From a virus (Duplodnaviria; Heunggongvirae; Uroviricota; Caudoviricetes), in the IMG/VR virus record IMGVR_UViG_3300001199_000002, positions 112,062 to 176,061 of that record: DNA of 64,000 nt; one strand, 5' to 3'. The stretch's first letter is position 1. Every line of letters starts with the position of its first letter. Position numbers and translations under genes: made by a program. Shown piece after piece: positions 35,946 through 52,134 of the stretch. The notes below the pieces were generated by a model, which saw only the letters and a list, made by a program, of their open reading frames with translations, had not been told where the DNA came from and ran no database searches.

Positions 35946-36338
35946 TCAGTTAGAGCGTGCTCGCGCAAACACCTTACCGATGTTGTATGCGCGCTTAGCT
36001 CCCATCTCGTCAGTTGGGAACAGGGCTGCGTAAGCAGCGGCGAACTCGGCTGGAAGATCCGTAGCACCGAGATTAGGGACAAGAGTCCATGAGTGCTTCT
36101 GAGCACGACCGAAGATGCGATTACGCACCTTCATACGCCCCATTGCGCGAACGAACTGATCCTTGCGCGAGCAAGTGGAACGCGCCACAAGAAGATGGCC
36201 ATCCGCAGTAACGGCGATACCGTTAGTACGAGTGCGCTTCTTGCTGTCCTTATCATACCAGAAAAGAACCTGGGTCGCAAGACCATTGCTCTTCTCTTCA
36301 TCGCTTCGACGATCCACAAACTTGTTTACTTCAGTCAT
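35946..36338 (-). CDS. Hypothetical protein
   Basis: ORF. Confidence 0.4.
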   Translation of the reverse strand: MTEVNKFVDRRSDEEKSNGLATQVLFWYDKDSKKRTRTNGIAVTADGHLLVARSTCSRKDQFVRAMGRMKVRNRIFGRAQKHSWTLVPNLGATDLPAEFAAAYAALFPTDEMGAKRAYNIGKVFARARSN

Positions 36339-36778
36339 ACTACTACTCCTAGTGCTTTACGCACTATTTCTAAGTGATCTGCTGCAAGTGATTGCAACTC
36401 TGTTACTCGAAACCATCTGGCTTCCTCCGCATCATCGCCAGCACATACTTCCGTGTGTTCGAACCGATCAACTACGGCTGTGTAAACAACCGAGATGATT
36501 CGATCGCGGGGATCACGATTCAGTCTACCGACTGCAACTACTTGTTGCAAATCGCTAGATGGAATATCTAAGCCTGTCTCTTCATATAGTTCACGCGCGG
36601 CACCAACCTCCAGTTCCTCATCCATTTCAAGGAAGCCACCGGGGATTGCCCACATGCCTTTGAAGGGTTCATTCTTTCGTTTGATGAGCAGAACCTTTGG
36701 GATCTTGTCGTCATCATGCATATCGAAGATTACCGCATCAACTGTTACTGCCGGTCTTGGGAACTGATACTGGAACAT
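36335..36778 (-). CDS. NUDIX hydrolase (MutT-like)
   Basis: Nudix box GGFLEMDEELEVGAARELYEETGL. Confidence 0.8.
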   Translation of the reverse strand: MFQYQFPRPAVTVDAVIFDMHDDDKIPKVLLIKRKNEPFKGMWAIPGGFLEMDEELEVGAARELYEETGLDIPSSDLQQVVAVGRLNRDPRDRIISVVYTAVVDRFEHTEVCAGDDAEEARWFRVTELQSLAADHLEIVRKALGVVV

Positions 36779-36991: not shown

Positions 36992-37527
36992 TACACACAG
37001 AGAAGAACTACGCCAGTAATCGCCGCAATCATCAGAGCGGAGAATAGCATGCCGTATCTAATACCCCTCATGAAGTTATCCTGCGCTGTTTGAGCAATCA
37101 AACGTTCGCCAAGTTCTAGCATACGGCTATATGAAGCTTCTTGTTCAGTTTTCATATTTGTGAAATCTGACTTCTCGATATTGCTAGCGGCTTCTGGCGT
37201 CAAGAAGCGAGCCCTAAATGAAGCCTCAATCTTGTCGATCATGACCCATAGATAGTTCTCTGGACTTAGTTGTTCGCCAGAGTAGTCAGCGTTAACCATT
37301 GAGCCATGGCATACGATCTTAGTATTGTCTTCTTCATCTAGAGAAACAAAGATGATGCCCTTTGTCTCACAACCCATAACTTCCCACGAGATCACTCCAT
37401 GGTTCTCTACAATCTTAGACATCAGTTCTTTGATGTCGTAGTTCATGGTCGTTGAAGTGTCAACGCTCAACTGTCCAGTATGGAGTGCGAACTTATTCAT
37501 TGTTAATTGCCACCCTCTTATTTCCAT
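36991..37527 (-). CDS. Hypothetical protein with C-terminal TM helix
   Basis: ORF. Confidence 0.4.
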   Translation of the reverse strand: MEIRGWQLTMNKFALHTGQLSVDTSTTMNYDIKELMSKIVENHGVISWEVMGCETKGIIFVSLDEEDNTKIVCHGSMVNADYSGEQLSPENYLWVMIDKIEASFRARFLTPEAASNIEKSDFTNMKTEQEASYSRMLELGERLIAQTAQDNFMRGIRYGMLFSALMIAAITGVVLLCV

Positions 37528-37825
37528 CAGATGTGGTGTTCATGTTGAAACTATTGAGTCGTGACATTCTATTCGTTTCTGCACTAAGATTGCTATAGAA
37601 CTCATATGTTGCTTCGCATAGCACTATGTGAAGCTTACTATCTACGTGATGTGCGGTATCAACCGTGAACCACGACGTGCCATAGTTAAGGTCTTCATCA
37701 TTTGTAAAGAACTGAATCTGTTTAGTTACAAAGCGGAACTTTCGCCAATTGAACTTAGTTAATTCAACTAGAATCAACCAGCCACCACTCTTGAGCTTCT
37801 GACTATCTATTAGTTTTGCTTCCAT
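37493..37825 (-). CDS. Hypothetical protein
   Basis: ORF. Confidence 0.35.
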   Translation of the reverse strand: MEAKLIDSQKLKSGGWLILVELTKFNWRKFRFVTKQIQFFTNDEDLNYGTSWFTVDTAHHVDSKLHIVLCEATYEFYSNLSAETNRMSRLNSFNMNTTSDGNKRVAINNE

Positions 37826-37828
37826 AGT

Positions 37829-38959
37829 TCACTCATGCTTTAGCAACCACTCGTTGCTGATTGCTTTGAAGCTAAGGCTTCCATCCAAAGCCTTGAATAC
37901 CAACCCTTCTCGCATGGTATTGCCATTCAACGCACTAACTCCATCGGCAAGAGTGAGAACACTATCAAGACTCATCGGAGTATCCTGATTCCAAACCATG
38001 ATAGGCACATGCTTTAGTCCGAGTTCGTGCGCAAGCTCGAAACGTTCGCGAGCACCTAGATACTTCTTTGCATCAATATCGTAGATGTCGAACACGTAGA
38101 ACTCTTGCTTGGCGAGATGGTATTTATTGCCCTGGATTGCAGGCCCGATGATCTCACCCTGAATGGCGATGTTACGTCCCAGTTCCCAAAGCTTATTGAC
38201 CAGATCGCTCTCTCTTAGAGTCTTGCTGTATACGTTATCATCGTCCTTCTGCATCTCCCAATTGCGGGATGCTACACCTACGACATCCTTCTTGAGACGT
38301 TCTACTTCTTCTGGCTTGCTGATATCATATCCCTGACCATCAAGCTTCTTGCCGAGACCCACAATCTCTTGTGTGATGAATGACCAGATGGTGCAGCTAG
38401 TTCCATCCAGCTTCTCTGTTACTTCAAAGTCCGAGATATTTCTGCCGTTCAACACATCTGTAATGTTCTGGATTCGTTCTTGATCTGTCTTTGGCACTAG
38501 GTGCGTTGGGAATGTTCCAGCCTGCTTACCACCAGTAGGAAGGGGTGGCTCGTACTTCTGAACACCTAGAACAGTAGTGAGTTCTTCGCCAGCACCTACA
38601 CGAGCGACTTCATCAGGAGTCAGACTCGTCGCCGGTATAAGAAGCCCTTGCGATAGAGTTCCTTTAAGACGGATGGTCTTGATGCGCGCGAACGGTGTGA
38701 CCTTGCCCTTAGCCAGGAATGCAAAGCGTGGATCAGTTGCGGGCAGCATCGAATCAATTTCGAAGTATACGCCCTCATCACCCACATTGAATTCGCCCTT
38801 CTTAACAACGCACTGCCAGCCATCGATACGGGCAAGTTCAATACGATCAGCCCCAGCGATAGGTGCCAGTTCGCGAACTACTCTCTTTGTTGCTAGTTGT
38901 CTCATAGTGCTAGAACTCCAAGCATTACTACTACCACGGCGATGAATCCAATTACGCAC
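37829..38959 (-). CDS. ATP-dependent RNA ligase (DraRnl/Rnl5-like: N-terminal extension + nucleotidyltransferase domain)
   Basis: Motif I KLDGTS near residue 183; motif IV EGLVFK; roughly 180-aa N-terminal domain precedes the NTase domain. Confidence 0.6.
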   Translation of the reverse strand: MRNWIHRRGSSNAWSSSTMRQLATKRVVRELAPIAGADRIELARIDGWQCVVKKGEFNVGDEGVYFEIDSMLPATDPRFAFLAKGKVTPFARIKTIRLKGTLSQGLLIPATSLTPDEVARVGAGEELTTVLGVQKYEPPLPTGGKQAGTFPTHLVPKTDQERIQNITDVLNGRNISDFEVTEKLDGTSCTIWSFITQEIVGLGKKLDGQGYDISKPEEVERLKKDVVGVASRNWEMQKDDDNVYSKTLRESDLVNKLWELGRNIAIQGEIIGPAIQGNKYHLAKQEFYVFDIYDIDAKKYLGARERFELAHELGLKHVPIMVWNQDTPMSLDSVLTLADGVSALNGNTMREGLVFKALDGSLSFKAISNEWLLKHE

Positions 38960-39285
38960 GCACCAAGATTTCTCATCATGAAATACTTTGCTGCCATATT
39001 TTGGTGACCGGCAAGAGCATCATCATATGAGGTATAGCGTTGCTGTTCAATTCCTCTGTAGCTGTTTCCACGAAACACCATTGTTTCGAACAACACCGGC
39101 TTTGGTTCGCCAGATCCGATATCGTCTGATAGAATTCCATGATCGATACCAAGGAACACCGTTGAGACGGACCATGGCCAGAATGTTTCTTGCTTTACGA
39201 TCCGACGAGGATCGTTCATCCAACCGGCACACTCCTGCATTGTGGCAGGCTTTGGTTGGTTATCGTCGTCTAGGATGTAGAACAT
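38902..39285 (-). CDS. Hypothetical protein, C-terminal TM helix
   Basis: ORF. Confidence 0.35.
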   Translation of the reverse strand: MFYILDDDNQPKPATMQECAGWMNDPRRIVKQETFWPWSVSTVFLGIDHGILSDDIGSGEPKPVLFETMVFRGNSYRGIEQQRYTSYDDALAGHQNMAAKYFMMRNLGACVIGFIAVVVVMLGVLAL

Positions 39286-39689
39286 TACTTCTTCTCAGTG
39301 AGAACAATCTCTGGAACACGAATTCGAACAGTCTCAGTACCGTCAGGACTAGTAAGCTCTACCACATAGGCGCGCATTACAACCTCTTCCCTAGTCATGC
39401 TATTGATCCAAGTGGCCATCCCCTGGACTTCTACAATCTTAGCATCATATGGAATGTCCTCAACCACAACAGCATCTCCAACCTTAAACTTAGTTGGCTG
39501 TTCTACTGGAACTTCCACGGTTGGTTCAACTGGCTTTGTGACTGGCACAACTGGTTCTGAACATGCTACAAGTGTAGCTAACAGCAGCAAAGAAACATTC
39601 TTCATACACAACTCCTTTATTGTTCGAATCTTCGTGCCATCCTCAAAATGGCATCTCGCGGCACCCCATGAGTGTTGCGCTTTGCGCAC
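39285..39689 (-). CDS. Putative lipoprotein
   Basis: LLLLATLVACSEP lipobox. Confidence 0.4.
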   Translation of the reverse strand: MRKAQHSWGAARCHFEDGTKIRTIKELCMKNVSLLLLATLVACSEPVVPVTKPVEPTVEVPVEQPTKFKVGDAVVVEDIPYDAKIVEVQGMATWINSMTREEVVMRAYVVELTSPDGTETVRIRVPEIVLTEKK

Positions 39690-40066
39690 ATGTCGATGTA
39701 ACTATCATCAAAGATAGCTTCACCCGCCACTGGTGAGATCAGCACTTCTTGAACTTCATAGCCAGCAGCTTGCGCGAAGTCCTTGTATGGCTGCATCTCT
39801 TTGTGTGTGGTATTAGTATTGTCAACGTAGATGATCTCGACACCAGCGTTCATCATCTTCTGACACTTGACTTGGTTATTACGATGGTTCACACCAAGCT
39901 TCGTAGCATCGAAGACATACTGTCCATCAGCATTCAAGAATTGGTCATCGGTCGAACAGATCGCAATACTGCGCACGCCAGCTTGCAACTGTGCGGAGAT
40001 ATCCATCTGAACCCAAGTGGACTTGCCGCCACCAGGAAGACCACGCATGATGTAGAGCTTCTTCAT
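39617..40066 (-). CDS. Polynucleotide 5'-kinase (T4 Pnk kinase-domain-like, stand-alone)
   Basis: MKKLYIMRGLPGGGKSTW parallels T4 Pnk MKKIILTIGCPGSGKSTW; DNTN and RNTHGVPRDAILRM blocks also conserved. Confidence 0.65.
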   Translation of the reverse strand: MKKLYIMRGLPGGGKSTWVQMDISAQLQAGVRSIAICSTDDQFLNADGQYVFDATKLGVNHRNNQVKCQKMMNAGVEIIYVDNTNTTHKEMQPYKDFAQAAGYEVQEVLISPVAGEAIFDDSYIDMCAKRNTHGVPRDAILRMARRFEQ

Positions 40067-40108
40067 GTCAGTATAGTATCACAACTAGATGAGTTGTCAA
40101 GTTGATTC

Positions 40109-41311
40109 TCAGAAAGATGCCTTTGCGCTTTCTCCATCCGAGGATTGAATACCCAATTCGGACAGCTTCTTGTCGAGAGTATAGCGATTGTTACCACGCT
40201 TCACATAGTCTCGCGCACCAACACTGCTCGACATTCTGAAAGCTTCACTCATCAACGATGCTTGCGTGACCTCTTTACCACTAAAGGTAGTGTCAAAAAC
40301 ATCTCCATCTAGCTTGAGCGTATTGGTCCAGAAATTTCTGGCATCATCTCGACCTAGTGCATTAAGCTTCAAGAAGTCGAAGCAACGTCCCGGACGGATA
40401 AGTGCAGAGTCAATCTCTTTTACTGCTTGATTCGTCGTGATGATGATCTTGACCTTACCCTGAGTGAAGATACCGTCACTATAGCTCAGTAGTTGAGTCA
40501 TGAACGTGCTCTCGGTATTCTTCCTACGAGGTAGCAAGTTGATATCTAGATCATCGAAAATGACAAGATCGTAGTTAGCGCCAGTCAGAGAACTCCAAAG
40601 CTCTCCGTCCTCCATCACCCTGGGATCTTTGATGTAGGCGGCGTTCTTGAAGTCACCATGCGCAATGATGTACTTTACGAAGGTGGTCTTACCAACACCC
40701 GGCTCGCCATACAACATCAGGATTGGCTCGTTTGCATTGTTGTATTGATAAACAAGCTTGCTAATGTCAATGTCTGGATAGAGGTCGGGATAGATGTCTG
40801 TAAAATCATCAAGTGCTACATACAGGTCTCTATTGGTTAGACCATGCTTAGTAGACATATAGAAGTATGCAAGGTCTAGCGACAGTGAGTCACCAACATC
40901 AGTAGTTGGAACGAGATTTAAGAACTCGATTAGGACTTTTTCGCTACTGTTCGTAGTGACAAAGAGTTGTAGCTTGCTTGTTTCATGCGCCATCTCGCGC
41001 AAGAATACGACGATCTCGTGACCCTCATAGTTGAGTTCGAAGTTAAAACAATTGTCGCTCTTTAGTTTAGTTACTTTTGCACCGCTAACCTCAACCAAAA
41101 ATTTCAAGACATCAGGCAAATGTCTCTTCCTGAATGAGATTCGATCCAAGAAGTGAAAGCCACGTTCCTTGTAGAGGTTCAGAAATGGCAAAAACGTTGC
41201 CAGATCACCAATGCCATCTAGATTAGGTGCGATGACAAAATCGCGTTGTTGTCTTTGTGTAGTCAAGTGACCTTTGTTTTTGAAGTGTTTAGGAAGTGGA
41301 AAGAGTTTCAC
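40109..41311 (-). CDS. AAA-family ATPase
   Basis: GEPGVGKTT Walker A; DLVIFDDLD Walker B; second-region-of-homology block ALIRPGRCFD. Confidence 0.6.
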   Translation of the reverse strand: MKLFPLPKHFKNKGHLTTQRQQRDFVIAPNLDGIGDLATFLPFLNLYKERGFHFLDRISFRKRHLPDVLKFLVEVSGAKVTKLKSDNCFNFELNYEGHEIVVFLREMAHETSKLQLFVTTNSSEKVLIEFLNLVPTTDVGDSLSLDLAYFYMSTKHGLTNRDLYVALDDFTDIYPDLYPDIDISKLVYQYNNANEPILMLYGEPGVGKTTFVKYIIAHGDFKNAAYIKDPRVMEDGELWSSLTGANYDLVIFDDLDINLLPRRKNTESTFMTQLLSYSDGIFTQGKVKIIITTNQAVKEIDSALIRPGRCFDFLKLNALGRDDARNFWTNTLKLDGDVFDTTFSGKEVTQASLMSEAFRMSSSVGARDYVKRGNNRYTLDKKLSELGIQSSDGESAKASF

Positions 41312-41601
41312 GCTGGCTTGGTATCTGGTCCGTCTAGGCTGTCTGGATCAATCCACACCACCTTGGTCTTTCCGTCATGTCCATGAATAGATCGAAGATT
41401 TCTTACGTTACGAAAGAATGTGATGCTTGTCTTATGTGAGAGCCATTGCATTGCGACAGCACCATCTTCGAACTCGACACCTTCCGCGACTCTACCAGTG
41501 CCACTCACACCACTCTCATCTTCGGTTCGTTGTAGATAAAATCTACGCATTGTCTTCCTCTTCTTTTGGATATCCACTCTCGATTTCAACACCAAGATCA
41601 T
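41308..41601 (-). CDS. Hypothetical protein
   Basis: ORF. Confidence 0.35.
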   Translation of the reverse strand: MILVLKSRVDIQKKRKTMRRFYLQRTEDESGVSGTGRVAEGVEFEDGAVAMQWLSHKTSITFFRNVRNLRSIHGHDGKTKVVWIDPDSLDGPDTKPA

Positions 41602-42331
41602 TTACCTCAAATACAACCGGAGGTCTAATAGTCTTGTAGTCTCTATCAAGAGACGATACGTTTGCATACAGCTTATTATCGCACAGCAGAAGTCTCTTAA
41701 ATCCACGAGCTTCATGAATATGGCCACCGATGGTGAGCTTCAACTTCTTCAATTGTTGAGTGCGCCTCAATAGATCGTTTGATCCAAGTCTTTCATCCGA
41801 GTTCGCATCGCCACCCTCGTCGGCACAGCCATATGCAGGACCGTGACAGATAAGGATATCGGTATCGTCGTCGATATGACTATAGATGTCAGCAAGTCTT
41901 GGGTTGTTGCTAAACGGAACTGTACCACCTTCGATACCATTAAATGCCCAGTCATGAAACCACGGAGTCCATGGCGTTCCATAGAACTTAATACCGTCGA
42001 TCACTACAGAGCGATTCTCTAGATATGTGATACGATCGAATGGATCGTTAGCGATGATGTCGCGCACAGAAGGATCATACTTCCTATGACCCTTGTCAAA
42101 GGTTAGTTCATGATTACCTGCGACAACAAGGATCCGCCTCGCAGGCTGTTCACGCAACCAGGAGGCGAAGTCAACAACCTCACCCCACTTGCCGGTATAA
42201 GTAAAGTCCCCTGCAACAACTAGAACATCACACTCTGGGATGACGAGTTGCTTGTGCTCGGTATGCGTATCGCTAATTGCTACGATCTTCATTTGGGCCA
42301 CACATAAGGTAGGGTTGCTGGTTCGATCCAA
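41543..42331 (-). CDS. Calcineurin-like metallophosphoesterase
   Basis: AISDTH, VVAGDF and AGNHE motifs. Confidence 0.75.
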   Translation of the reverse strand: MDRTSNPTLCVAQMKIVAISDTHTEHKQLVIPECDVLVVAGDFTYTGKWGEVVDFASWLREQPARRILVVAGNHELTFDKGHRKYDPSVRDIIANDPFDRITYLENRSVVIDGIKFYGTPWTPWFHDWAFNGIEGGTVPFSNNPRLADIYSHIDDDTDILICHGPAYGCADEGGDANSDERLGSNDLLRRTQQLKKLKLTIGGHIHEARGFKRLLLCDNKLYANVSSLDRDYKTIRPPVVFEVNDLGVEIESGYPKEEEDNA

Positions 42332-42693
42332 CCAAACTGTCCATAGTGAGTTGGATCTTTTCTGAGTAGATTACTTCTGTGAGAAGCGTGGAACATCGCG
42401 TCACCAAACCAACTAGGCATAGATGGTTGTGTGCTATGATCCAATAGCCTCATTGTGTTGTTGTAGCCTCGCTTGATCCATTCCATGATTGCGAGGTTGT
42501 GATACATCTTTAATGCATCTAGATGATCTCTCCACATCACTGCTGCTGGATGATTGATCCAGCCACGCTTTTGCGTTGTGCCAGAGTTTACGTTGATGAG
42601 TTGCATTGCTTCGACTCGCTGCTTACCAAGGCGGCGGTAGTCAAGGCACTCAATGGAACGCTGAAGGTCTGGATATGGCAAGAACGTTTGCAT
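42289..42693 (-). CDS. Pyrimidine-dimer DNA glycosylase-like (DenV/Pyr_excise family)
   Basis: LD..RLGKQRVEA..L...GW.NHPA..MWR block pattern, recalled from memory. Confidence 0.45.
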   Translation of the reverse strand: MQTFLPYPDLQRSIECLDYRRLGKQRVEAMQLINVNSGTTQKRGWINHPAAVMWRDHLDALKMYHNLAIMEWIKRGYNNTMRLLDHSTQPSMPSWFGDAMFHASHRSNLLRKDPTHYGQFGWIEPATLPYVWPK

Positions 42694-42699
42694 TACACT

Positions 42700-42727
42700 A
42701 TTATACTACTTCTTAGCTAGTTGTCAA
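42700..42727 (-). promoter_or_regulatory. Sigma70-type promoter TTGACA-N16-TATAAT
   Basis: Perfect consensus hexamers; -10 ends 7 nt before the ATG of 42289..42693. Confidence 0.6.
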
Positions 42728-42732
42728 GTCTT

Positions 42733-43026
42733 TCACAAGAATCCTTTCTTGTCGAGACATACGCCTTTCTCAGGACTTTTACATGTCATTAGAGATGGTG
42801 TCTCAACTCCTATTTCATCATCTCCATAGAAGCATGGTACTTCCAAAATGATAGATGATCGATTAATCTTCACTACCCTACCAGCGGTAGGTGGCGCACC
42901 ATAGAAATAGGCATCGCCTATCTCAATTAGGTTGCCGAAGTAGTCTACGATTGGTTTCTTTGGACGCATAGATGTTGGCGGAGAGCGTGGGAACCGAGCC
43001 CACCCTGAGAGATCAACCCCAGGCAT
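42733..43026 (-). CDS. Hypothetical protein
   Basis: ORF. Confidence 0.35.
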   Translation of the reverse strand: MPGVDLSGWARFPRSPPTSMRPKKPIVDYFGNLIEIGDAYFYGAPPTAGRVVKINRSSIILEVPCFYGDDEIGVETPSLMTCKSPEKGVCLDKKGFL

Positions 43027-43097: not shown

Positions 43098-43176
43098 TGG
43101 TGACAACGGTGGGACTTGAACCCACAAGACGCCCCGTTTTGAGCGGGACAGGTTTGCCAATTTCCGTCACGTTGCC
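43098..43176 (-). tRNA. tRNA, CCA-encoded; anticodon loop read as CUCAAAA (CAA?); D-region irregular
   Basis: Acceptor GGCAACG/CGUUGUC; T-arm GUGGG-UUCAAGU-CCCAC; hand fold. Confidence 0.5.
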
Positions 43177-43370
43177 TCAGTCCAGTCCTCACGAATGAAA
43201 CAGCCGTCTGCTACTAATCGCGCACGATCTTCTTCGGCTAACTGCAAGATATGCCTTAGCCACAGATCACTTAGTTTTTCTAGTTGAGTTCTAATACCAA
43301 TGTCATCCATTGATATGGACACATACTTCATCCACCTGCGGATGATTGCCAGCTTTTGTTCTCTTGACAT
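43167..43370 (-). CDS. Hypothetical protein
   Basis: ORF. Confidence 0.3.
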   Translation of the reverse strand: MSREQKLAIIRRWMKYVSISMDDIGIRTQLEKLSDLWLRHILQLAEEDRARLVADGCFIREDWTEAT

Positions 43371-43682
43371 TTATGCCTCTTCTTTGCTTTGCAATTTCAA
43401 GATTGCATCTCTGACATCAGCATATGGCGTTACTGTATAGATCACAGCCTGTCCTACTAGTTGCATTACCGCACCACTGCTTGGAAGTTCCTCTACAGCA
43501 GACACTCTAATGCTTGGATCGGTCGATGCCTTCTCGATTGCCATAGCGCGTCCAGCGGCATACGCATCACGGTGTCGCTTTGCGATCGGCTGAAACTGAG
43601 CAATCGAATTCATGTTCAGCATGATTGTCGTATAAGGGATATCCTTATCGTTGAACTCAACTACGTCTACTTCGATGAACAT
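43371..43682 (-). CDS. Hypothetical protein
   Basis: ORF. Confidence 0.35.
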   Translation of the reverse strand: MFIEVDVVEFNDKDIPYTTIMLNMNSIAQFQPIAKRHRDAYAAGRAMAIEKASTDPSIRVSAVEELPSSGAVMQLVGQAVIYTVTPYADVRDAILKLQSKEEA

Positions 43683-43700
43683 ATCCTATCCTTTTGTAAA

Positions 43701-43777
43701 TGGTGACTCGGGTGGGATTCGAACCCACACTGTATGGCTTCTAAGACCATTGCCTCCTGCCGTTGGGCTACCGAGCC
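43701..43777 (-). tRNA. tRNA with anticodon UAG (Leu by anticodon) but short variable loop (type-I body)
   Basis: Acceptor GGCUCGG/CCGAGUC; anticodon arm AUGGU-CUUAGAA-GCCAU; T-arm GUGGG-UUCGAAU-CCCAC; CCA. Confidence 0.6.
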
Positions 43778-44247
43778 GTAATTCGTTTCTTGTTACTAAA
43801 TGTGGGTGTTTGAGAATGACAGTTCGGACAAAGGAACCGTAGATTCTCTGCTCTATTGTTTAGAGGATTGCCGTCAATGTGATCGATATGTAGGGTGATC
43901 TCTTTTGCCAGCCAAAACTCTCCAACTGCACAACCGACTCCTTCACATGCGTATCTTCTACCAATTTCAATTAGTGCTCTACGAAGCTGATGAGTCTTGG
44001 TTCTTTCAAGACTATAGATATCGTAGCATAGGATCTGTTCTGCCGTCAGCCTGTTGCTAGGTGAACATCCCTTGCTCCAATTTTTCCCAGTAAAATGTGA
44101 AGTGTCTACTCCTAGTTTGGTTGACATCTTTCTTATGTGAGAGTGCATACCGCCGCTTTGTTTTACCTTGAGGTAACGCAACATACCAGCATATGAGTTA
44201 CTGGCGTTGGCTGCTTCTTGTAAAACTTGCTTGGTATACTTACTCAT
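43768..44247 (-). CDS. HNH homing endonuclease
   Basis: C-terminal HIDHIDGNPLNNRAENLRFLCPNCH; start set at Met 44247 because the ORF's N-terminal extension runs through a tRNA gene. Confidence 0.7.
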   Translation of the reverse strand: MSKYTKQVLQEAANASNSYAGMLRYLKVKQSGGMHSHIRKMSTKLGVDTSHFTGKNWSKGCSPSNRLTAEQILCYDIYSLERTKTHQLRRALIEIGRRYACEGVGCAVGEFWLAKEITLHIDHIDGNPLNNRAENLRFLCPNCHSQTPTFSNKKRITAR

Positions 44248-44252
44248 GATAT

Positions 44253-44328
44253 TGGTGCTCACACCAGGATTCGAACCTGGAACATTTCGGCTCTCGACCG
44301 AACGCCTCTGCCATTGGGCTATGCGAGC
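44253..44328 (-). tRNA. tRNA with non-canonical anticodon loop UCGAGAG (C33)
   Basis: Perfect acceptor GCUCGCA/UGUGAGC; T-arm CCAGG-UUCGAAU-CCUGG; CCA; anticodon stem UUCGG/CCGAA. Confidence 0.5.
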
Positions 44329-44338
44329 TAGTTGTAAA

Positions 44339-44412
44339 TGGTACCCCGTGCGAGAATCGAACTCGCGCTTCAACGTTGAGAGCGTGGCGATCTACCACTA
44401 ATCTAACGGGGC
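44339..44412 (-). tRNA. tRNA-Glu(CUC)-like
   Basis: Anticodon arm CCACG-CUCUCAA-CGUUG; T-arm GCGAG-UUCGAUU-CUCGC; G1-U72; paralog of the next tRNA. Confidence 0.55.
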
Positions 44413-44415
44413 AAA

Positions 44416-44489
44416 TGGTACTCTCATCGGGTATCGATCCCGAGTTTCCACGTTGAAAGCGTGGCGATCTACCATTGATCTATGAGAGC
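44416..44489 (-). tRNA. tRNA-Glu(UUC)
   Basis: D-arm GAUC-AAUGGUA-GAUC; anticodon arm CCACG-CUUUCAA-CGUGG; T-arm UCGGG-AUCGAUA-CCCGA; CCA. Confidence 0.65.
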
Positions 44490-44669
44490 ATGTTGACTAC
44501 TTTAGTAGTCGAAGTTCTCGTTCTGGAATCTTACGTTCCTCTAGCCAATCCGTGTATTCGTTTGGCGTCCAGCCTAAGAACTCGCACAGGGATAGAGGAG
44601 CATCTGAATTGTGCCACTCCATCACTCTGCGTTCGATCGATTCTCGAATTGTCTTAAGTCGTTCGTCCA

Positions 44670-45062
44670 TTAGAATATCAAAACCCCACCAAAGTAGAAG
44701 ATTGGATTCTCGTCCTGCCAAGGATCCAGCCTAGTGTCGTCATCTCGATACCTGTCGAGCAGATCACTATCTTTGTATACACTATCTCTGATGCCTAATT
44801 CGAAGGATTTACTGTCGTTGACGTAGTATACCACACCTATTCCGAGAAGCAACTCTTCTTGGCGAATAAATTCGCCGCCCAGGTATGGCCTAATCTTACC
44901 CTGATCTGTGAAGAAAATCTTAGCCTTAGGGCCTACCCTTGGATCTAGTCCTGGCTTAGTTCTAGACCATCCAATATACTTGTCAGGCATGTTGGGTCTG
45001 GATAGGCGATACTCAATACAACTAGAAAAGACTAGTGTTATGGCGAGACAGAGTAGTTTCAC
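44670..45062 (-). CDS. Putative lipoprotein
   Basis: LVFSSC lipobox. Confidence 0.4.
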   Translation of the reverse strand: MKLLCLAITLVFSSCIEYRLSRPNMPDKYIGWSRTKPGLDPRVGPKAKIFFTDQGKIRPYLGGEFIRQEELLLGIGVVYYVNDSKSFELGIRDSVYKDSDLLDRYRDDDTRLDPWQDENPIFYFGGVLIF

Positions 45063-45763
45063 TTATCTAGTAGGTCATACAACTCTTTGTAACCATGGCT
45101 GTCTATTAGATTATGAACTCGTTGGCGCTCTTCGTTAGTCTTCTTATCCCATTCTGCAAAGACTCTTAGTAGATTTTTGTTTGCAATCTTGTAACCCTTA
45201 GCCGCATACTTCATACATCGCTGTAGTGTAGCGAGTGGATTACTTATATGGAGTATATGCATCTTTTGATTCGTTTCGCCCCACAGAAAGCCTTGACTGA
45301 CATACCCCTTGAGGGTATTTTGTGGAGTAATGACCAGCGCCGCCTGACAAATGTTCAGATCAAACTTATCTAATACATCATAGACGGTACCCATACGACC
45401 ATCATATGGCTTAATGAGTTGAACACTAATCCCAATACCAAACTCTACTGTATTTGGTTGACTAAGTGTTAAAGCATTCTTAGTTTCTAGGGCTACTACG
45501 AATCCTTCGTGACCTAGAATAAACTTAGCCTTACAAAACGAATCATCGTTCTCAAAGTAGATATCAATATCACTAGGATGTGGAGTGCTTGCATCTGGAC
45601 TAAGCACCCATCGAGCAAATCCACCAGCAATGAAACATTTGACCCCATCGTTCCGCAGCATAGTCATAAGACCAACTACAGCATCGCCACCCCGTTGAGG
45701 AACAGCAATACTGTATGGATGCCTTACGGCTTCTTTTAGATCGTTAGGGTCAACAAATGTCAC
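45059..45763 (-). CDS. Pol-beta-superfamily nucleotidyltransferase (possible tRNA nucleotidyltransferase-like)
   Basis: IAGGFARWVL...SDIDIYF, GG...DxD spacing. Confidence 0.4.
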   Translation of the reverse strand: MTFVDPNDLKEAVRHPYSIAVPQRGGDAVVGLMTMLRNDGVKCFIAGGFARWVLSPDASTPHPSDIDIYFENDDSFCKAKFILGHEGFVVALETKNALTLSQPNTVEFGIGISVQLIKPYDGRMGTVYDVLDKFDLNICQAALVITPQNTLKGYVSQGFLWGETNQKMHILHISNPLATLQRCMKYAAKGYKIANKNLLRVFAEWDKKTNEERQRVHNLIDSHGYKELYDLLDK

Positions 45764-47154
45764 TTGGTGGCTCGGCGGCGAATGTTGTCAAAGACATCTA
45801 GATGAGTAAATTCACCATTCTCAAACACGGTGCGCATCAGGTCTTCGCGACCATTCAGTTCGTCTACTCTGAAGGTGCTCACACCATAGTCAGTCTTGCC
45901 TAGAGTAATACGACCACCCTTCGAGTTCTTGGTTGGGTCGCTCTTTGGACGCTTAAACACATCGGTCCATACACCATCCTTCTGGATTGCACTGCATTTG
46001 AATGCAAATCGTTGAGTGTCGCGATTGACCTTTTGAAGGAGGCCACCACCCATACCGAATGCCACATTATCCAGCGACCAACCAGCGGTGATCATTGCGT
46101 CAATGACAGCCTTGATCGTTTCAGGTTCACAACCATCACCCTGAATGACACGAACCTTATCGTTAAGAACTCGATAGCCCTTTTCGTTTTGGTAGGTGCC
46201 AAATGCATCAGCTAGACGACGTAGGACATTCAATACAGAGGATACAATCTCTCCACTGTCAGGACGAACAACTAGCGTGCCGTTACGCTTGAGCACTTCA
46301 TCCCTTAGTTCCTCACCCCATAGATGGGTGCAGGCATTGTCGATGTCGAAACTGTCGCTAACACAGGCTACCAAGCCGTCTGGATATTGTGTCAGCATAT
46401 TGCGATAGGCATCTACCTCACCAGCCTCACCCCAAGAAGTGATAGTGCTATGTTCGCTGGCGGGGATAGAGAATCCAGCCATACCGGCATCGTAATACTC
46501 CATACCACAACCGAGAGCCGCAAGGGTGTCTGTCCCCTTGAAGTTGACAAGGTGGGCGAGCCCGCCAATGCCCGCAGATTCGACGCTGGACACGCCACGG
46601 AAGCCGAAGTCGTGCAGCTTGAAGTCCACCAGAGCTGGGTTGCCGGTCTTCTCAAGGGCAGCCAGGATCATCTCACGACAGTAGTTGCTCTGTGTTGCTA
46701 CGGTAGATGGATACCACACCTGAACAAGAAGCGTCTCAAGGTAGTTCGTCAACCAGAAACACTTAGGATCAGTGTTCTCGATGGTCATTAGAACATTTCC
46801 AGTTGGGACGCGCGTTCCTTCTGGCACCGCGCGGATGCGGATAGGAAGGAAGCCATTATACTTATCGATGATGTATTGCCAACCTTCACGGTTGAATGCA
46901 CCCTCAGCGCCACCCATATGAATGCGCGCTACGCTTGCCGCCTGCTCAAGCTTTTCCTGCGTCACCACCTGACCTTGGAGGTATCGGCGGATGAAATATT
47001 GTAGTCCAAAGAAAACAGTATATGGAAACTTGGCACCAACACGACTCTCGAAGTAAGAGAAGACGGTTTGTGTGCCCTGAGGATACTGCTTGTAGTGCGA
47101 CAGCTTGTAGCTATCCGTCAGTAGAATAATGTTGTCGTGCAGTCGAGTGTTCAT
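45760..47154 (-). CDS. nadV: Nicotinamide phosphoribosyltransferase
   Basis: N-terminal NIILLTDSYKLSHYKQYP; about 464 aa. Confidence 0.85.
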   Translation of the reverse strand: MNTRLHDNIILLTDSYKLSHYKQYPQGTQTVFSYFESRVGAKFPYTVFFGLQYFIRRYLQGQVVTQEKLEQAASVARIHMGGAEGAFNREGWQYIIDKYNGFLPIRIRAVPEGTRVPTGNVLMTIENTDPKCFWLTNYLETLLVQVWYPSTVATQSNYCREMILAALEKTGNPALVDFKLHDFGFRGVSSVESAGIGGLAHLVNFKGTDTLAALGCGMEYYDAGMAGFSIPASEHSTITSWGEAGEVDAYRNMLTQYPDGLVACVSDSFDIDNACTHLWGEELRDEVLKRNGTLVVRPDSGEIVSSVLNVLRRLADAFGTYQNEKGYRVLNDKVRVIQGDGCEPETIKAVIDAMITAGWSLDNVAFGMGGGLLQKVNRDTQRFAFKCSAIQKDGVWTDVFKRPKSDPTKNSKGGRITLGKTDYGVSTFRVDELNGREDLMRTVFENGEFTHLDVFDNIRRRATK

Positions 47155-47158
47155 GATC

Positions 47159-48085
47159 TTACTCCTTTTCTAGGTGAGAAAGAACCATCTCCATGATGGG
47201 TCTGTGTTGTGGAACCAAAAGATTGGGATTGAAGTCCTTTAGATCAAAGAGCTTCGCTTCAGCCAAATCATCCTTACCCTCTACAATGCCGTAGAGATAG
47301 TCACAGATGAATACAGTTGTCATGATCTTATCGACTTCTTTGCGATAGCGCCAGTCGTCAACGATCATTGATCCAATGTAACGCGGTGAACTAATGCCAC
47401 ATCCGATCTCCTCATTTGCTTCTCTAGATGCAGCTAGATCGAATGATGTGTCTTTAGATGGATCAACAAATCCACCAGGGAATCGCCACAGACCATTAGG
47501 ATCATTCTTCTTGCGACCCAAGATGATATGCGTAGCATTGCCTTCTGGTGTTCGCTTTACAACAGCGATATCAACAGTAGCAAAGATAGCATGATGCCGA
47601 TTGTGTGCAGCGTAGATGATACCACGCCGAAACTCTGCGTTGCCACGAACCTCGTCAGACACGGCCTTGCGGATCTCTGTGCCAGAAACATTCTTAGCCG
47701 TATCTAGTTCGATAGTTGGATACTTGCCGCCGTAGTGAGGAATGAATGCATCCCTTGATCCATATAGGATGGCAGTGCCAATACCGAGAACTTCGTTGAT
47801 ACGCTCATCGACAGACCTAGACCAATCCTTGTCGGATGGCATGTCATGAATCGGAAGAACGATCACATCTGGATATGCTTCCCGCATCATGATTGCGCGA
47901 GTAAAGTAATCCAGTGGATTGTTTCGTGTAACGAGAACACTTGGAGTGCTACCAAGAAGGATCAATACCTTCTTATGCTTTGCGCGGACACTATCGATCA
48001 ACGCGCGATGTCCCTCGTGTAGTTCTGGGACTTGAAACCTTCCAATGATGACGCCGAGTTCAGCGTCCGCAGTCTTGACATCCAT
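47159..48085 (-). CDS. natV: Bifunctional NMN adenylyltransferase / Nudix ADP-ribose pyrophosphatase
   Basis: GRFQVPELHEGH NMNAT motif; C-terminal Nudix box REANEEIG. Confidence 0.8.
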   Translation of the reverse strand: MDVKTADAELGVIIGRFQVPELHEGHRALIDSVRAKHKKVLILLGSTPSVLVTRNNPLDYFTRAIMMREAYPDVIVLPIHDMPSDKDWSRSVDERINEVLGIGTAILYGSRDAFIPHYGGKYPTIELDTAKNVSGTEIRKAVSDEVRGNAEFRRGIIYAAHNRHHAIFATVDIAVVKRTPEGNATHIILGRKKNDPNGLWRFPGGFVDPSKDTSFDLAASREANEEIGCGISSPRYIGSMIVDDWRYRKEVDKIMTTVFICDYLYGIVEGKDDLAEAKLFDLKDFNPNLLVPQHRPIMEMVLSHLEKE

Positions 48086-48116
48086 ATTTAAACCCCTTGT
48101 TTAGGTGAGTTATCTT

Positions 48117-48144
48117 AGTATACACTAAGTGTGTCGCTTGTCAA
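48117..48144 (-). promoter_or_regulatory. Sigma70-type promoter TTGACA-N16-TATACT upstream of the natV/nadV operon
   Basis: Hexamers and spacing; AAGGGG Shine-Dalgarno follows. Confidence 0.55.
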
Positions 48145-48161
48145 CTTTCTTCCGATGAAAG

Positions 48162-48863
48162 TTAACCTTTAGCTATACGCCTAACCGTTCTTTCAAACTC
48201 GGAAAAGTCTACTTCACCGATCTCCACTACTTCACCATTATCGTCGGTGTCATATACACTGGCATTATCCAGCAGTTGAAGAGACGACTTCACCAGTTCG
48301 GTACGACCAGAAATGATGTTACGCATCAACTGGTGTTTCTTGATCGACTCTCTGATGTCATCCATGGCCCTATGAGCCGTGCTGGTCTCCGATCCAAAGA
48401 TAGAGGGGAACCCTACCTTATAGACACTGACATCTAGCTGTCGATAGTGTAGCATCTTCTCCAGACGAGGCATATGCTCCTTGAGAGCGTTACGATCATA
48501 TGAGATGCTGCTGCCGGCAATGACAAAGATGGTGGGCTCTTGTGCCGCGAACATCTTGAGTCGAGCGATCAGTTGGTCTTCGACGAATCTAATCGCCTCA
48601 TCTCCATAACACGTCTGATTGTCTTGGATAGACCGGAGTTCCTCCAGTAAACCATTCTTCTCGTGCATCTCACGCGCCTTGTCGGCGATGATGGCTTCGA
48701 TCCGTTCGATCTTGTGCGGGATCAAACCCTGATCTGCACCTAGTTCGTTCAGTTCAAGGTCAGTGAAGACCACAGCAAACTCTAGCAGTTCACCGTGTCC
48801 CTTACGGACATCGAGACCCGTGGCCTCGAAGTCCAACCAGAATAGAATCGTTCGTGCAGTCAT
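48162..48863 (-). CDS. DEDDh 3'-5' exonuclease (DnaQ/oligoribonuclease-like)
   Basis: WLDFEATGLD Exo I motif; HRAMDD Exo III motif. Confidence 0.65.
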   Translation of the reverse strand: MTARTILFWLDFEATGLDVRKGHGELLEFAVVFTDLELNELGADQGLIPHKIERIEAIIADKAREMHEKNGLLEELRSIQDNQTCYGDEAIRFVEDQLIARLKMFAAQEPTIFVIAGSSISYDRNALKEHMPRLEKMLHYRQLDVSVYKVGFPSIFGSETSTAHRAMDDIRESIKKHQLMRNIISGRTELVKSSLQLLDNASVYDTDDNGEVVEIGEVDFSEFERTVRRIAKG

Positions 48864-49081
48864 TTGCTCTTCTTGGTGATACGTCGCAGTCCGATTTGTC
48901 TCAGTTCTGATGCAGACATATTCTTGACGATATCTTCAAGCTTTACGCGAGTAAGCATTACGTCAGTTGGAACTGCTTCTGGAATATCCCCTTCGTAATA
49001 GCAAGAGGAATTATCCAGTTCAATATTAACATCTACCGCAAAGTGTAGATACTCTATGCTAGTTGGTATGATCTTAGACAT
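48860..49081 (-). CDS. Hypothetical protein
   Basis: ORF. Confidence 0.35.
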   Translation of the reverse strand: MSKIIPTSIEYLHFAVDVNIELDNSSCYYEGDIPEAVPTDVMLTRVKLEDIVKNMSASELRQIGLRRITKKSK

Positions 49082-49424
49082 CTACCTCTTCCTTCTTAGC
49101 GCGCGACTTACGAGCACCACTCGCGCGATTCTGCATCTTTCGCGTGTCGGTCTTGAGACGCTTGAGCGTCGAATACCAGCACGGATCGTTCATCAGCACC
49201 CTGATAGTGCGCGCAATTGACTTCTTGTGCGCCGGAGTGTTGGCATAGAACTCAGCCTCCCACGCGCCAGCCGCCCACTTGCAGTAGGCAAACTCTTCGC
49301 GCTTCTTCTTACCTTCGCCGCGAACAACTTCCACTTCAATCTTACCGTCTTCGTTCTTAGTCATTTTAGTTTTCCTTGTTTCAGTAACCGCAGTCGTAAT
49401 CGTCTGAGTGAATCGTAAAGCCAA
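49074..49424 (-). CDS. Basic hypothetical protein
   Basis: ORF. Confidence 0.4.
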   Translation of the reverse strand: MALRFTQTITTAVTETRKTKMTKNEDGKIEVEVVRGEGKKKREEFAYCKWAAGAWEAEFYANTPAHKKSIARTIRVLMNDPCWYSTLKRLKTDTRKMQNRASGARKSRAKKEEVDV

Positions 49425-49836
49425 GCTTAGCGTCCGATCGGCTAATGCTCAACTCAAAGTTAGTATTGAACAGGATCGCAAAGTCATCATCAAGGGCTTC
49501 TACGATCTTATGTGCCTTCTCATAAGTCACATGCTCAGGATGAGCTTCATCGTTGATATCCTGTTCGTCCTTGGGCCTTTCTTCGTCTTCATCATCTTCG
49601 TCACAGTCCTCGAAGTTTCCCCACGGGTCATAATTGCCCACGGCTGCTTCTTGGTGGTGAGTGCATGGATCGCCGTCATTGAATCCTGGAGTCCAACCTC
49701 GCACACGGATCTGATCAAGACTTGGAATCTCCGCAAAGATAGCTGAAAGCGCTTCGTTAACGTTCTTCTGTGCTGCTTCCTTACGTCCAGCGCTAGCGGC
49801 AATTGCCTTGTTGTATAGTTCGTCGAGCTTATTCAT
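49381..49836 (-). CDS. Acidic hypothetical protein
   Basis: ORF with a run of D/E. Confidence 0.4.
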   Translation of the reverse strand: MNKLDELYNKAIAASAGRKEAAQKNVNEALSAIFAEIPSLDQIRVRGWTPGFNDGDPCTHHQEAAVGNYDPWGNFEDCDEDDEDEERPKDEQDINDEAHPEHVTYEKAHKIVEALDDDFAILFNTNFELSISRSDAKLGFTIHSDDYDCGY

Positions 49837-49855
49837 TTGAGTTTCCTTTGTTAAG

Positions 49856-49967
49856 TGGTGCCCGGAGAGGGAATTGAACCCCCAACCCTCCGCATATCAG
49901 GCGGTGCCAGTTTTGAGGCTGGAGCAGATCATAAATCTACCGCTCTACCTAATTGAGCTATCCGGGC
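49856..49967 (-). tRNA. 112-nt tRNA-like gene; canonical acceptor, D- and T-arms; two anticodon-arm candidates (UAU, GAU) with a 40-nt variable region
   Basis: Acceptor GCCCGGA/UCCGGGC perfect; D-arm GCUC-AAUUAGGUA-GAGC; GUAGA-UUUAUGA-UCUGC; T-arm GGGGG-UUCAAUU-CCCUC; CCA. Confidence 0.45.
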
Positions 49968-49980
49968 TCATTGCACTACT

Positions 49981-50008
49981 AGTATACACCAGCAGTGCTA
50001 GTTGTCAA
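49981..50008 (-). promoter_or_regulatory. Sigma70-type promoter TTGACA-N16-TATACT upstream of the 112-nt tRNA-like gene
   Basis: Hexamers and spacing; -10 lies about 14 nt from the tRNA 5' end. Confidence 0.55.
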
Positions 50009-50022
50009 ATTCTTTCTACAAA

Positions 50023-51048: not shown

Positions 51049-51069
51049 TGCTTTCTTTTCCTTGTTTAG

Positions 51070-51564
51070 TTAGATGATCTTACGTTCTTTCAATTCTTTC
51101 AACTGCCTTGCAAACTTGTGATTTGCGCTGGGGTTGAAGATTTCACTTTCTTCCTTTGGAATGCTATCCTTAAGCATGATATCATCCCAACAGTGATCCT
51201 TGATTGTTTGACGCCAATCCAATCCAAGTTCTCGCTCCCAGTAGATACCAAGGGCGGACGCTAGCTCTTCTTCTTGTTGAGCCATCTTTCCAGTCATCCC
51301 TTTAGCTAGGGACATGCTTGGACCCAGCCTAAAAGTATCGGGCGATTCGCCAAGCCCAAACTCGGGCAGCGTCCTTCGCTCTGGTGCGGCAACAACAAAA
51401 TGTGCGATGTCGTGGATGAGATTGCTTTCCGTGCGGCGCTTGGTAAGTGCTTCGTCTTGAAATTCAGCGATAGTTTTACCATTGAAAGCATAGTCACGAC
51501 AATGGCGCTTCCAAATTCTTGTGCCCCACTTGTGAGCTAGTTGTCTGATCTTTCTCATGTGCAT
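51070..51564 (-). CDS. Hypothetical protein
   Basis: ORF; consensus promoter immediately upstream. Confidence 0.4.
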   Translation of the reverse strand: MHMRKIRQLAHKWGTRIWKRHCRDYAFNGKTIAEFQDEALTKRRTESNLIHDIAHFVVAAPERRTLPEFGLGESPDTFRLGPSMSLAKGMTGKMAQQEEELASALGIYWERELGLDWRQTIKDHCWDDIMLKDSIPKEESEIFNPSANHKFARQLKELKERKII

Positions 51565-51566
51565 CT

Positions 51567-51594
51567 AGTATAGCACGTTCTTGGTTGTTGTCAA
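51567..51594 (-). promoter_or_regulatory. Sigma70-type promoter TTGACA-N16-TATACT
   Basis: Hexamers and spacing; immediately upstream of the 51564 start. Confidence 0.55.
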
Positions 51595-52133: not shown

Positions 52134-52134
52134 A

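Follow-up and report, generated by a model that had tools for sequence, protein, structure and literature searches.

The subject of this article is a 4.5-kb stretch (positions 37829–42331) within a 64,000-nucleotide (nt) piece of a Caudoviricetes genome, positions 112,062–176,061 of IMG/VR record IMGVR_UViG_3300001199_000002. This piece is herein referred to as the window, and all coordinates are given in it. The stretch encodes an RNA ligase of the Rnl5 family, a stand-alone kinase resembling the 5'-kinase domain of T4 polynucleotide kinase (Pnk), a metallophosphoesterase (MPE), and a small protein of the Acb5 family, named after nucleases that counteract the cyclic-oligonucleotide-based antiphage signaling system (CBASS). 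A sequence-only reading had combined ligase, kinase, and phosphoesterase into a split version of bacterial Pnkp that heals tRNAs cut by host anticodon nucleases. With evenly balanced confidence, the stretch is interpreted here as part of a co-directional, mixed counter-defense block downstream of a tRNA island, which comprises two functional pairs and not one split Pnkp. It is regarded as mixed because MPE, the proposed third enzyme of a split Pnkp, is paired with Acb5. Pair A would consist of the mini-Pnk kinase (39617–40066) and the Rnl5 ligase (37829–38905). Herein, the kinase would phosphorylate 5'-OH ends, and the ligase, via a Lys165-AMP intermediate, would seal 3'-OH/5'-PO4 nicks with an RNA 3'-OH strand, provided that the break is in a duplex or stem, so that RNA damaged by host ribonucleases could be mended. 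The two proteins probably mend RNA in this manner, their activities being deduced from homology and their pairing from conserved and recurrent gene neighborhoods. Pair B would consist of an MPPED2-type phosphodiesterase, MPE (41543–42292), and the Acb5-family protein (41308–41550), whose genes are translationally coupled. Acb5 would cut CBASS cyclic dinucleotides to 2',3'-cyclic nucleoside monophosphates (2',3'-cNMPs), as was shown for Acb5A, and MPE would open these products or attack other cyclic nucleotides.

The Acb5-family protein consists of 80 amino acids (aa) and shares 46% identity (E 7e-20) with Acb5A, a validated anti-CBASS nuclease for cyclic GMP–AMP (cGAMP). Acb5A depends on R10, W38, and H61, mutation of which abolishes its function (bioRxiv 10.1101/2025.07.12.664507); their counterparts in the protein of the window, R8, W36, and H58, are invariant in an alignment of seven sequences. 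In addition, the protein is 85% identical to that of a metagenomic relative (L321) carrying a precomputed match to the Pfam family Acb5 (PF26761). A Pfam scan of the 80-aa open reading frame (ORF) itself gave no match, the Pfam copy used probably predating PF26761. By homology, the protein is a member of the Acb5 family. Acb5A is a homotetramer that cleaves 3'3'-cGAMP to 2',3'-cNMPs (bioRxiv 10.1101/2025.07.12.664507).

The 249-aa MPE, matched by Pfam Metallophos, is encoded directly upstream on the same strand, and its stop codon lies in an 8-nt overlap with the ATG of the Acb5-family gene (ATGCGTAG). It aligns with mammalian MPPED2 over residues 3–229 (E 3.8e-33 with the single sequence, 2.5e-41 with a profile). 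All five metal-binding motifs are present (SDTH, GDFT, GNHE, CHGP, and GHIHE), and the second one reads GDFTYTG, not GDxxDRG as in the lambda-phosphatase/ApaH type. When the PDB was searched with a profile up to E 5, MPPED2, aq_1665, and SbcD were found but not the lambda-phosphatase type such as CthPnkp (4j6o). On these sequence features, MPE is an MPPED2-type class III metallophosphodiesterase and not of the lambda-phosphatase type found in Pnkp. The characterized MPPED enzymes, dMpped of the fly and rat MPPED1/2, are diesterases with undetectable monoesterase activity, and dMpped hydrolyses 2',3'-cyclic AMP (cAMP) better than 3',5'-cAMP or cyclic GMP (PMC10547211). Since Acb5A yields 2',3'-cNMPs and dMpped prefers 2',3'-cAMP, Acb5 generates the class of substrates favored by the enzyme family to which the product of the coupled gene belongs. 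Restricted to diesters, an MPPED enzyme alone would, therefore, give no ligatable 3'-OH.

The ligase gene (37829–38905, minus strand) has its true start at the ATG at 38905; the GTG at 38959 would add 18 unsupported residues. Its product combines a PHA02142 OB domain (PF21189, residues 22–109 of the 376-aa ORF, 97 bits) with the Pfam RNA_ligase domain, scores 209.1 bits against the equivalog TIGR02306 (RNA_lig_DRB0094, cut-off 151.15), and matches phrog_968, "RNA ligase," at E 3.7e-89. In the PDB, NgrRnl matches it best, with an end-to-end alignment from residue 4 (E 4.5e-78). The motifs KLDGTS (with K165), EGLVFK at 333, and SFKAIS at 345 are intact and are the same as those of NgrRnl in the alignment. 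Because of this domain pair, the TIGR02306 score, the NgrRnl alignment, and the motifs, the protein is assigned by sequence to the Rnl5 family (DraRnl/NgrRnl-type), which bears out the earlier claim of an RNA ligase with an Rnl5-like N-terminal extension. Such ligases join 3'-OH/5'-PO4 nicks in duplexes with an RNA 3'-OH strand and are feeble on single-stranded RNA, whereas loop breaks in stem–loops are the specialty of Rnl1 and Rnl4 (PMC4408790). The physiological role and substrates of Rnl5 were described as uncharted, with DraRnl tied to irradiation recovery, genome reassembly, and DNA repair (PMC5397189). A grouping with DNA ligases, also considered, was rejected; these reach just E 0.12 in the PDB search.

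The kinase (39617–40066, minus strand) comprises 149 aa and matches Pfam AAA_33 with 35.6 bits. In a single-sequence PDB search, T4 Pnk is its best match, albeit a weak one (E 0.022). For a family profile, 285 homologs were collected and 37 of them aligned; this profile matches the kinase domain of T4 Pnk over its full length at E 1e-13, followed by PSTK (7e-7), Pnkp1 of Capnocytophaga (2e-5), CthPnkp (1e-4), and mammalian PNKP (6e-4), with adenylate kinases at E ~0.05–0.1 or worse. The AlphaFold model has a mean confidence score (pLDDT) of 92, and its Foldseek ranks 1–10 are all T4 Pnk with template modeling (TM) scores of 0.71–0.74. The P-loop reads GLPGGGKS (residues 9–16; G9-x-x-G12-x-G14-K15-S16). 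The invariant or nearly invariant S38-T39-D40 aligns with T4 R34-D35-D36, which includes the catalytic D35, and R130 of the motif R130-N-T-H133 aligns with the lid arginine R126 of T4. A further motif is D82-N-T-N85, which, like the P-loop and R-N-T-H, is invariant; for T4 R38, no equivalent was identified. By sequence and model, the protein is a stand-alone Pnk-like kinase domain with T4 Pnk as its nearest solved relative. A fused C-terminal HAD-type 3'-phosphatase is absent from the 149 aa, which form the kinase domain alone. Hence, the earlier description as closely resembling T4 Pnk stands as to kinship and not as to closeness, the identity being ~20%. A nucleoside monophosphate (NMP) kinase, which that reading had named as the opposing outcome, was rejected since polynucleotide and tRNA kinases rank ahead in the profile search. 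The kinase also matches positions 5–143, i.e., the N terminus, of the 556-position PADLOC profile CARF4--CARF_PDDEXK_AAA (E 4e-21). With RNA_ligase, AAA_33, and Metallophos all matched, the profile check suggested earlier came out positive for each enzyme, and the calcineurin-like phosphoesterase and the interleaved AAA ATPase of the sequence-only reading are both present.

All genes from ~42.7 kb to 36.3 kb lie closely spaced on the minus strand, so that transcription order corresponds to descending coordinates. The order begins with a 134-aa MSMEG_6728/Pyr_excise-like protein recognized by Pfam (42289–42693), whose stop codon overlaps the start of the MPE gene (ATGA). The Acb5-family gene follows MPE and shares 4 nt (GTGA) with the gene of the AAA ATPase, a 400-aa protein with a GTG start (40109–41311; PF00004 at residues 198–311). 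A 42-nt gap separates the latter from the kinase gene. A short spacer carrying AGGAG then leads to the ATG of a small predicted lipoprotein (39285–39605) with a signal peptide ending in Cys as judged from sequence (MKNVSLLLLATLVACS). Its gene overlaps (TAATG) that of orf127 (38902–39285), which has a hydrophobic C-terminal stretch resembling a membrane helix and whose stop overlaps the ATG of the ligase gene (ATGA). MPE, kinase, and ligase are, thus, three separate ORFs with four other genes in between; compared with the sequence-only reading, the interval contains three further ORFs, namely the Acb5-family gene, the lipoprotein gene, and orf127. Start and stop codons overlap at the MSMEG_6728-like/MPE, MPE/Acb5, Acb5/AAA, and orf127/ligase junctions.

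Just upstream of the start at 42693, a perfect sigma-70 consensus promoter (TTGACA-16-TATAAT, 12/12) is found at 42700–42727 on the minus strand; by estimate, ~0.003 such matches are expected in 9 kb. It likely marks the start of the transcription unit. A promoter-like site with an extended −10 TG (TTGACA-16-TACTAT, 10/12) occupies 40073–40100 on the same strand, inside the 42-nt gap preceding the kinase gene. This site stops 6 nt from the ATG, and no Shine–Dalgarno sequence is visible in 40067–40108. Translation of the kinase may start on a leaderless transcript or depend entirely on read-through mRNA.

The comparison covered eight metagenomic relatives (L004, L054, an NCBI contig from GCA_041443025.1, L056, L320, L321, L322, and L323), whose contigs mostly span 170–185 kb and whose kinases are 43% to 73% identical to that of the window. 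All eight keep the gene order Metallophos, Acb5, a variable segment, kinase, one to three small ORFs, and Rnl5. Downstream of Rnl5, a zinc-ribbon gene follows in five of the eight and a NUDIX gene in six. The only relative scanned for tRNA genes, L004, likewise carries an upstream tRNA island. Four of the relatives have the AAA ATPase and four lack it, and small lipoprotein genes fill the slot corresponding to 39285–39605 in L004 and L056. AAA ATPase, lipoprotein, and orf127 are variable cargo. For the AAA ATPase, PADLOC matches are confined to the P-loop region, and it carries an uncharacterized N-terminal domain of 190 aa. The MSMEG_6728-like protein gave no tblastn match in L004, the sole relative checked for it, and its gene probably lies outside the conserved core. 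Megablast of 37000–43000 against 50,697 phage records matched nothing, and there is no close cultured relative among them. The entire region from an RNase_T gene to a RuvB-like gene is syntenic across the clade; conserved order alone is, therefore, no proof of a functional link. The expectation that the genes might not be co-conserved was not borne out, with the same reservation of general synteny.

Linkage beyond the clade was assessed with hidden Markov models for five families, with which the six-frame ORFs of retrieved loci were scanned. Among 80 kinase-centered viral loci (±6 kb; kinase in all 80), an RNA ligase of the Rnl5 or Rnl1 type occurs in 14, Metallophos in 22, and Acb5 in 2, with ligase and Metallophos together in 7. 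Around 50 viral Rnl5 genes (±10 kb), 49 loci gave an RNA ligase match, 7 a kinase, 9 Metallophos, and 1 Acb5. The corresponding numbers for 80 MPE-centered viral loci (±8 kb) are kinase 5, RNA ligase 8, Metallophos 80, and Acb5 1, and those for 80 Acb5-centered viral loci (±4 kb) are kinase 3, RNA ligase 5, Metallophos 6, and Acb5 79. Around 80 kinase genes of cellular genomes, mainly Shewanella and Pseudoalteromonas (±6 kb; kinase 80), two RNA ligases and neither Metallophos nor Acb5 were detected. None of the families occurs in 22 viral control loci centered on ribonucleotide reductase (264 kb; kinase, RNA ligase, Metallophos, and Acb5 each 0). A kinase–ligase association as a general trait of the kinase family was rejected in view of its absence in the 80 cellular loci. 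The kinase gene overlaps or abuts its partner in seven viral loci (L146, L149, L151, L152, L183, L191, and L197), and in Aeromonas phage 2L372X a phosphoesterase, an Rnl1-type ligase, and a kinase homolog stand in a row. The metallophosphoesterase accompanying the kinase elsewhere is mostly of a small type of ~190 aa and of the MPPED2 type in just ~3 lineages. In the Pakpunavirus phage vB_Pae_Kat, the annotations flanking the Rnl5 gene are all hypothetical proteins.

Seven Acb5 loci have ligase, kinase, or Metallophos neighbors. One of them, L231, lies on the contig of the relative L004, which also accounts for the sole Acb5 matches in the Rnl5- and MPE-centered sets (L004 and L058, the same contig). 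In L245 (882–6886), kinase, small Metallophos, a second Metallophos, Acb5, and a PF09414 ligase lie within 6 kb; a Metallophos of a third subfamily is here one ORF away from Acb5. L283 (3251–5826) and L288 contain an Rnl1-type fragment, a minimal PF09414 ligase of 224 aa, Acb5, and an overlapping Metallophos, and in L296 (3995–4973) Acb5 is followed by the same Metallophos type as in L283. The Metallophos of these three loci belongs to the ApaH/lambda-phosphatase/CthPnkp type (for L283/L296, motif GDLIDRG and PDB matches 2qjc at 5.5e-32 and CthPnkp 4j6o at 1.5e-18). A weak Macro-domain match lies downstream in L283. L278 (1–4231) shows an Rnl1-type ligase, a PF09414 ligase, and Acb5, and in L290 Acb5 comes after a kinase, a small Metallophos being close by. 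The metallophosphoesterases beside Acb5, thus, represent three subfamilies and both gene orders, and RNA ligases also adjoin it. With small counts, partly related loci, and a small control set, this linkage is suggestive but not proven.

Several observations weigh against a division of the block into two pairs. Outside the clade, the MPPED2-type enzyme is rarely near Acb5, the only such case among the 80 MPE-centered loci being a relative, and the 7 Acb5 loci with neighbors of interest stand against 80 examined. Within the clade, a 190–204-aa ORF separates MPE from Acb5 in three of the eight relatives (L054, L322, and L323), variable genes separate Acb5 from the kinase in most of them, and the co-conservation of these genes is no more than general synteny. 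Moreover, some neighbors of Acb5 elsewhere are RNA ligases, which blurs the division and may indicate one pathway for all genes. For Rnl5, the connection of DraRnl with DNA repair (PMC5397189) also counts against it.

A rival interpretation is the split Pnkp proposed earlier, in which kinase, MPPED2-type MPE, and Rnl5 heal and seal tRNAs cut by PrrC- or RloC-like anticodon nucleases. All eight relatives retain the three genes together, next to a tRNA island, the kinase is Pnk-like, and its homologs adjoin ligases and metallophosphoesterases in unrelated phages; an MPPED-type enzyme is able to open 2',3'-cyclic phosphates on mononucleotides (PMC10547211), and RNA-repair genes accompanying tRNA arrays of phages represent a recognized counter-defense theme (PMC7824862). 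Of this proposal, the kinase and the RNA ligase hold, but the third component does not fit, since MPE is not of the Pnkp/lambda-phosphatase type, is coupled to Acb5, would without monoesterase activity leave no 3'-OH, and differs from the small metallophosphoesterase that usually accompanies the kinase. The anticodon-nuclease part loses its footing with the ligase, as Rnl5 favors duplex nicks over single strands and loop breaks belong to Rnl1 and Rnl4 (PMC4408790); a ligase of the Rnl1 type was not found in the window. On balance, the split Pnkp is considered improbable. For 3'-end healing, MPE may serve, or equally a second, small metallophosphoesterase of 191 aa (62629–63204, minus strand), the only one of the small type in the window, which lies just past the last tRNA at the opposite end of the tRNA island and is 35% identical (E 1e-33) to the phosphoesterase of Aeromonas phage 2L372X.

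The opposite explanation dispenses with any module. Here, independent accessory genes would share the region by descent, MPE and Acb5 would each act alone, and kinase and ligase would serve in nondefense nucleic-acid metabolism, for example, at RNA–DNA junction nicks or ribonucleotide patches in replicating phage DNA. It would account for the variable insertions (AAA ATPase, 190–204-aa ORFs, and lipoproteins) that break up the genes and for a conserved order that is uninformative in a region syntenic as a whole. Of the 50 viral Rnl5 loci, 43 lack a kinase within 10 kb and most lack MPE, 79 of the 80 MPE loci lack Acb5, and DraRnl aids genome reassembly after irradiation (PMC5397189). This explanation is nevertheless judged unlikely, as the kinase directly adjoins, and often overlaps, two ligase families and small metallophosphoesterases in several unrelated lineages, an adjacency absent in cellular genomes and control loci. 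Furthermore, Acb5 abuts metallophosphoesterases of different subfamilies in both orders, and four start/stop overlaps occur in the window. That MPE is a DNA nuclease directed against host DNA, or a stand-alone conflict effector unrelated to RNA ends and cyclic nucleotides, is held to be very improbable. A metallophosphoesterase-like mycobacteriophage protein, gp48, does damage host DNA and is required for defense evasion (PMC12287305), and MPE matches PDC-S10, a single-gene candidate defense family of PADLOC, with 207 bits. In viral contigs, moreover, genes of its family very commonly stand alone (at least 585 matches). The set of 79 MPE loci used for neighbor clustering is dominated by one low-GC phage group. 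However, the closest characterized relatives of MPE (MPPED1/2 and dMpped) are small-molecule phosphodiesterases, and its gene is translationally coupled to Acb5.

Beyond the two-pair interpretation of this block, Acb5 nucleases, metallophosphoesterases capable of acting on 2',3'-cyclic phosphodiesters, mini-Pnk kinases, and RNA ligases might form a recurrent phage "supermodule" around the chemistry of 2',3'-cyclic-phosphate and 5'-OH ends. This is put forward tentatively and seems rather less than probable. The pattern occurs in several lineages with nonorthologous replacement, comprising three Metallophos subfamilies, three ligase types, and both gene orders, and the kinase match to the N terminus of the CARF4--CARF_PDDEXK_AAA profile points in the same direction. 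If it is true, the phage could destroy cyclic-oligonucleotide alarms, clear 2',3'-cNMPs, and mend the RNA that signal-activated RNases have cut, or else the Acb5 fold could have an unrecognized role at RNA ends in RNA repair. The repeated position of Acb5 beside metallophosphoesterases and RNA ligases suggests a two-step disposal of the immune signal from cGAMP via 2',3'-cNMP to NMP and may, in addition, indicate a tie between signal destruction and RNA repair. With Rnl5 fixed beside a Pnk-like kinase, tRNA genes, and anti-defense genes (Acb5, Gad2, and NAD+ salvage), the block also offers a setting in which the substrates of Rnl5 could be learned. Should the genes be mere neighbors, it would be an ordinary case of phage counter-defense gene clustering.

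The tRNA island (43098–62281, minus strand) lies immediately upstream of the block and holds ~24 tRNA genes, 21 found by ARAGORN and 3 by Rfam alone (49859–49967, 53226–53296, and 56868–56938). The island of the earlier description is, hence, real, with a count slightly above the ~23 given there. It also harbors Gad2, NAMPT, NMNAT-NUDIX, RNase_T, SPFH, and NT5C genes, PD-(D/E)XK and HNH endonucleases, and a Pistol ribozyme. The HAD protein at 56090, listed in the sequence-only reading as a phosphatase, was rejected as a Pnk-type 3'-phosphatase; it is an NT5C-family 5'(3')-deoxyribonucleotidase. The Gad2-family (anti-Gabija) homolog (45059–45763, minus strand) shares 70% identity with a protein of L321 for which a Pfam Gad2 match had been precomputed and also matches a PHROG nucleotidyltransferase family. 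NAMPT, of 464 aa, precedes a NUDIX-domain protein of 308 aa (45760–48085, minus strand), whose L320 counterpart shows a faint CTP_transf_like (adenylyltransferase) match; by sequence, the two resemble the NAD+ salvage pair NAMPT plus NMNAT-Nudix of large phages. Pfam recognizes a further NUDIX gene at 36335–36778 (minus strand). Together, the Gad2 homolog, the NAMPT and NMNAT-NUDIX pair, and this further NUDIX gene lend the region the character of an anti-defense island. A second AAA ATPase, resembling the IetA/TRIP13 type (PADLOC E 2e-16), is encoded inside the tRNA island at 58548–59417 (minus strand).

The Pistol ribozyme (57430–57502, minus strand; Rfam RF02679, 51.5 bits versus a gathering cut-off of 34.5, E 1.8e-6) abuts the start of the PD-(D/E)XK endonuclease ORF (57001–57432) within the island. 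Self-cleaving ribozymes of this type leave 2',3'-cyclic-phosphate and 5'-OH ends, which are the ends that the Pnk/ligase pair would handle. The HNH endonuclease ORF (43768–44250, minus strand) lies between tRNA-Leu genes. As called at full length, this ORF overlaps tRNA-Leu(gag) and tRNA-Glu, so that its real start is probably further downstream, and it is likely a homing-type element within the tRNA array. Four tRNA predictions on the minus strand are unusually long, namely the 109-nt Rfam match missed by ARAGORN (49859–49967) and those for Thr (86 nt, 52230–52315), Cys (87 nt, 59750–59836), and Pro (90 nt, 62192–62281). Insertions, introns, or long variable arms may account for their length.

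Compared with known systems, pair A shares with the restriction-repair enzymes Pnk and Rnl1 of T4 the concept of a phage that heals and seals broken RNA. The kinase has the P-loop, the Asp at the position of D35, and the Arg at that of R126 in common with T4 Pnk, its nearest relative by profile and fold, but it differs in its low identity (~20%) and the lack of a fused HAD 3'-phosphatase. Its partner ligase is an Rnl5, made for duplex nicks, whereas that of T4 is Rnl1, made for anticodon loops. The bacterial Pnkp/Hen1 system of Clostridium thermocellum likewise unites kinase, binuclear metallophosphoesterase, and ATP-dependent ligase in one locus, the activities being predicted ones in the window. 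There, they reside on a single polypeptide with a lambda-phosphatase-type phosphoesterase and an Rnl4; here, they are separate genes with an MPPED2-type phosphoesterase and an Rnl5. A Pfam scan of the ORFs between 36 and 64 kb that are 90 aa or longer revealed no Hen1 or other methyltransferase. The ligase has the same two-domain layout as DraRnl of Deinococcus radiodurans and NgrRnl of Naegleria gruberi, with OB and nucleotidyltransferase domains and no C-terminal module. Unlike these, it is phage-encoded, and compared with NgrRnl it has an insertion of ~30 aa past motif I that varies among relatives. It is also located few genes from a Pnk-like kinase, whereas in Deinococcus the nearby kinase DR_B0098 belongs to another operon (PMC5397189).

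The kind of cluster is already known, since Iyer et al. (2021) surveyed large phages in which tRNA arrays are accompanied by split RNA-repair genes, NAD+ salvage, and anti-signal phosphodiesterases (PMC7824862). The split arrangement differs from T4 and Pnkp/Hen1, as claimed earlier, but was already described for these tRNA-rich phages. Sets such as that of Aeromonas phage 2L372X share with the window a stand-alone kinase, a phosphoesterase, an ATP-dependent RNA ligase, and a large tRNA array, as well as NAD+ salvage by NAMPT plus NMNAT-Nudix and anti-signaling enzymes. The window differs by its Rnl5 ligase, by the MPPED2 type of the adjacent phosphoesterase, and by the Acb5-family gene wedged into the cluster; Acb5 was named only in 2025 and is not mentioned in PMC7824862. 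With the described Acb5 nucleases, the protein of the window shares the size (72–80 aa), 46% identity to Acb5A, and the essential Arg, Trp, and His. The Acb5 preprint (bioRxiv 10.1101/2025.07.12.664507) is silent on ligase, phosphoesterase, neighbors, and genomic context, whereas here and in several other lineages the Acb5 gene abuts metallophosphoesterases and RNA ligases, a recurrent placement that is previously unreported. New in this block are, thus, the linkage of Acb5 and the composition of Rnl5, mini-Pnk, MPPED2-type enzyme, and Acb5.

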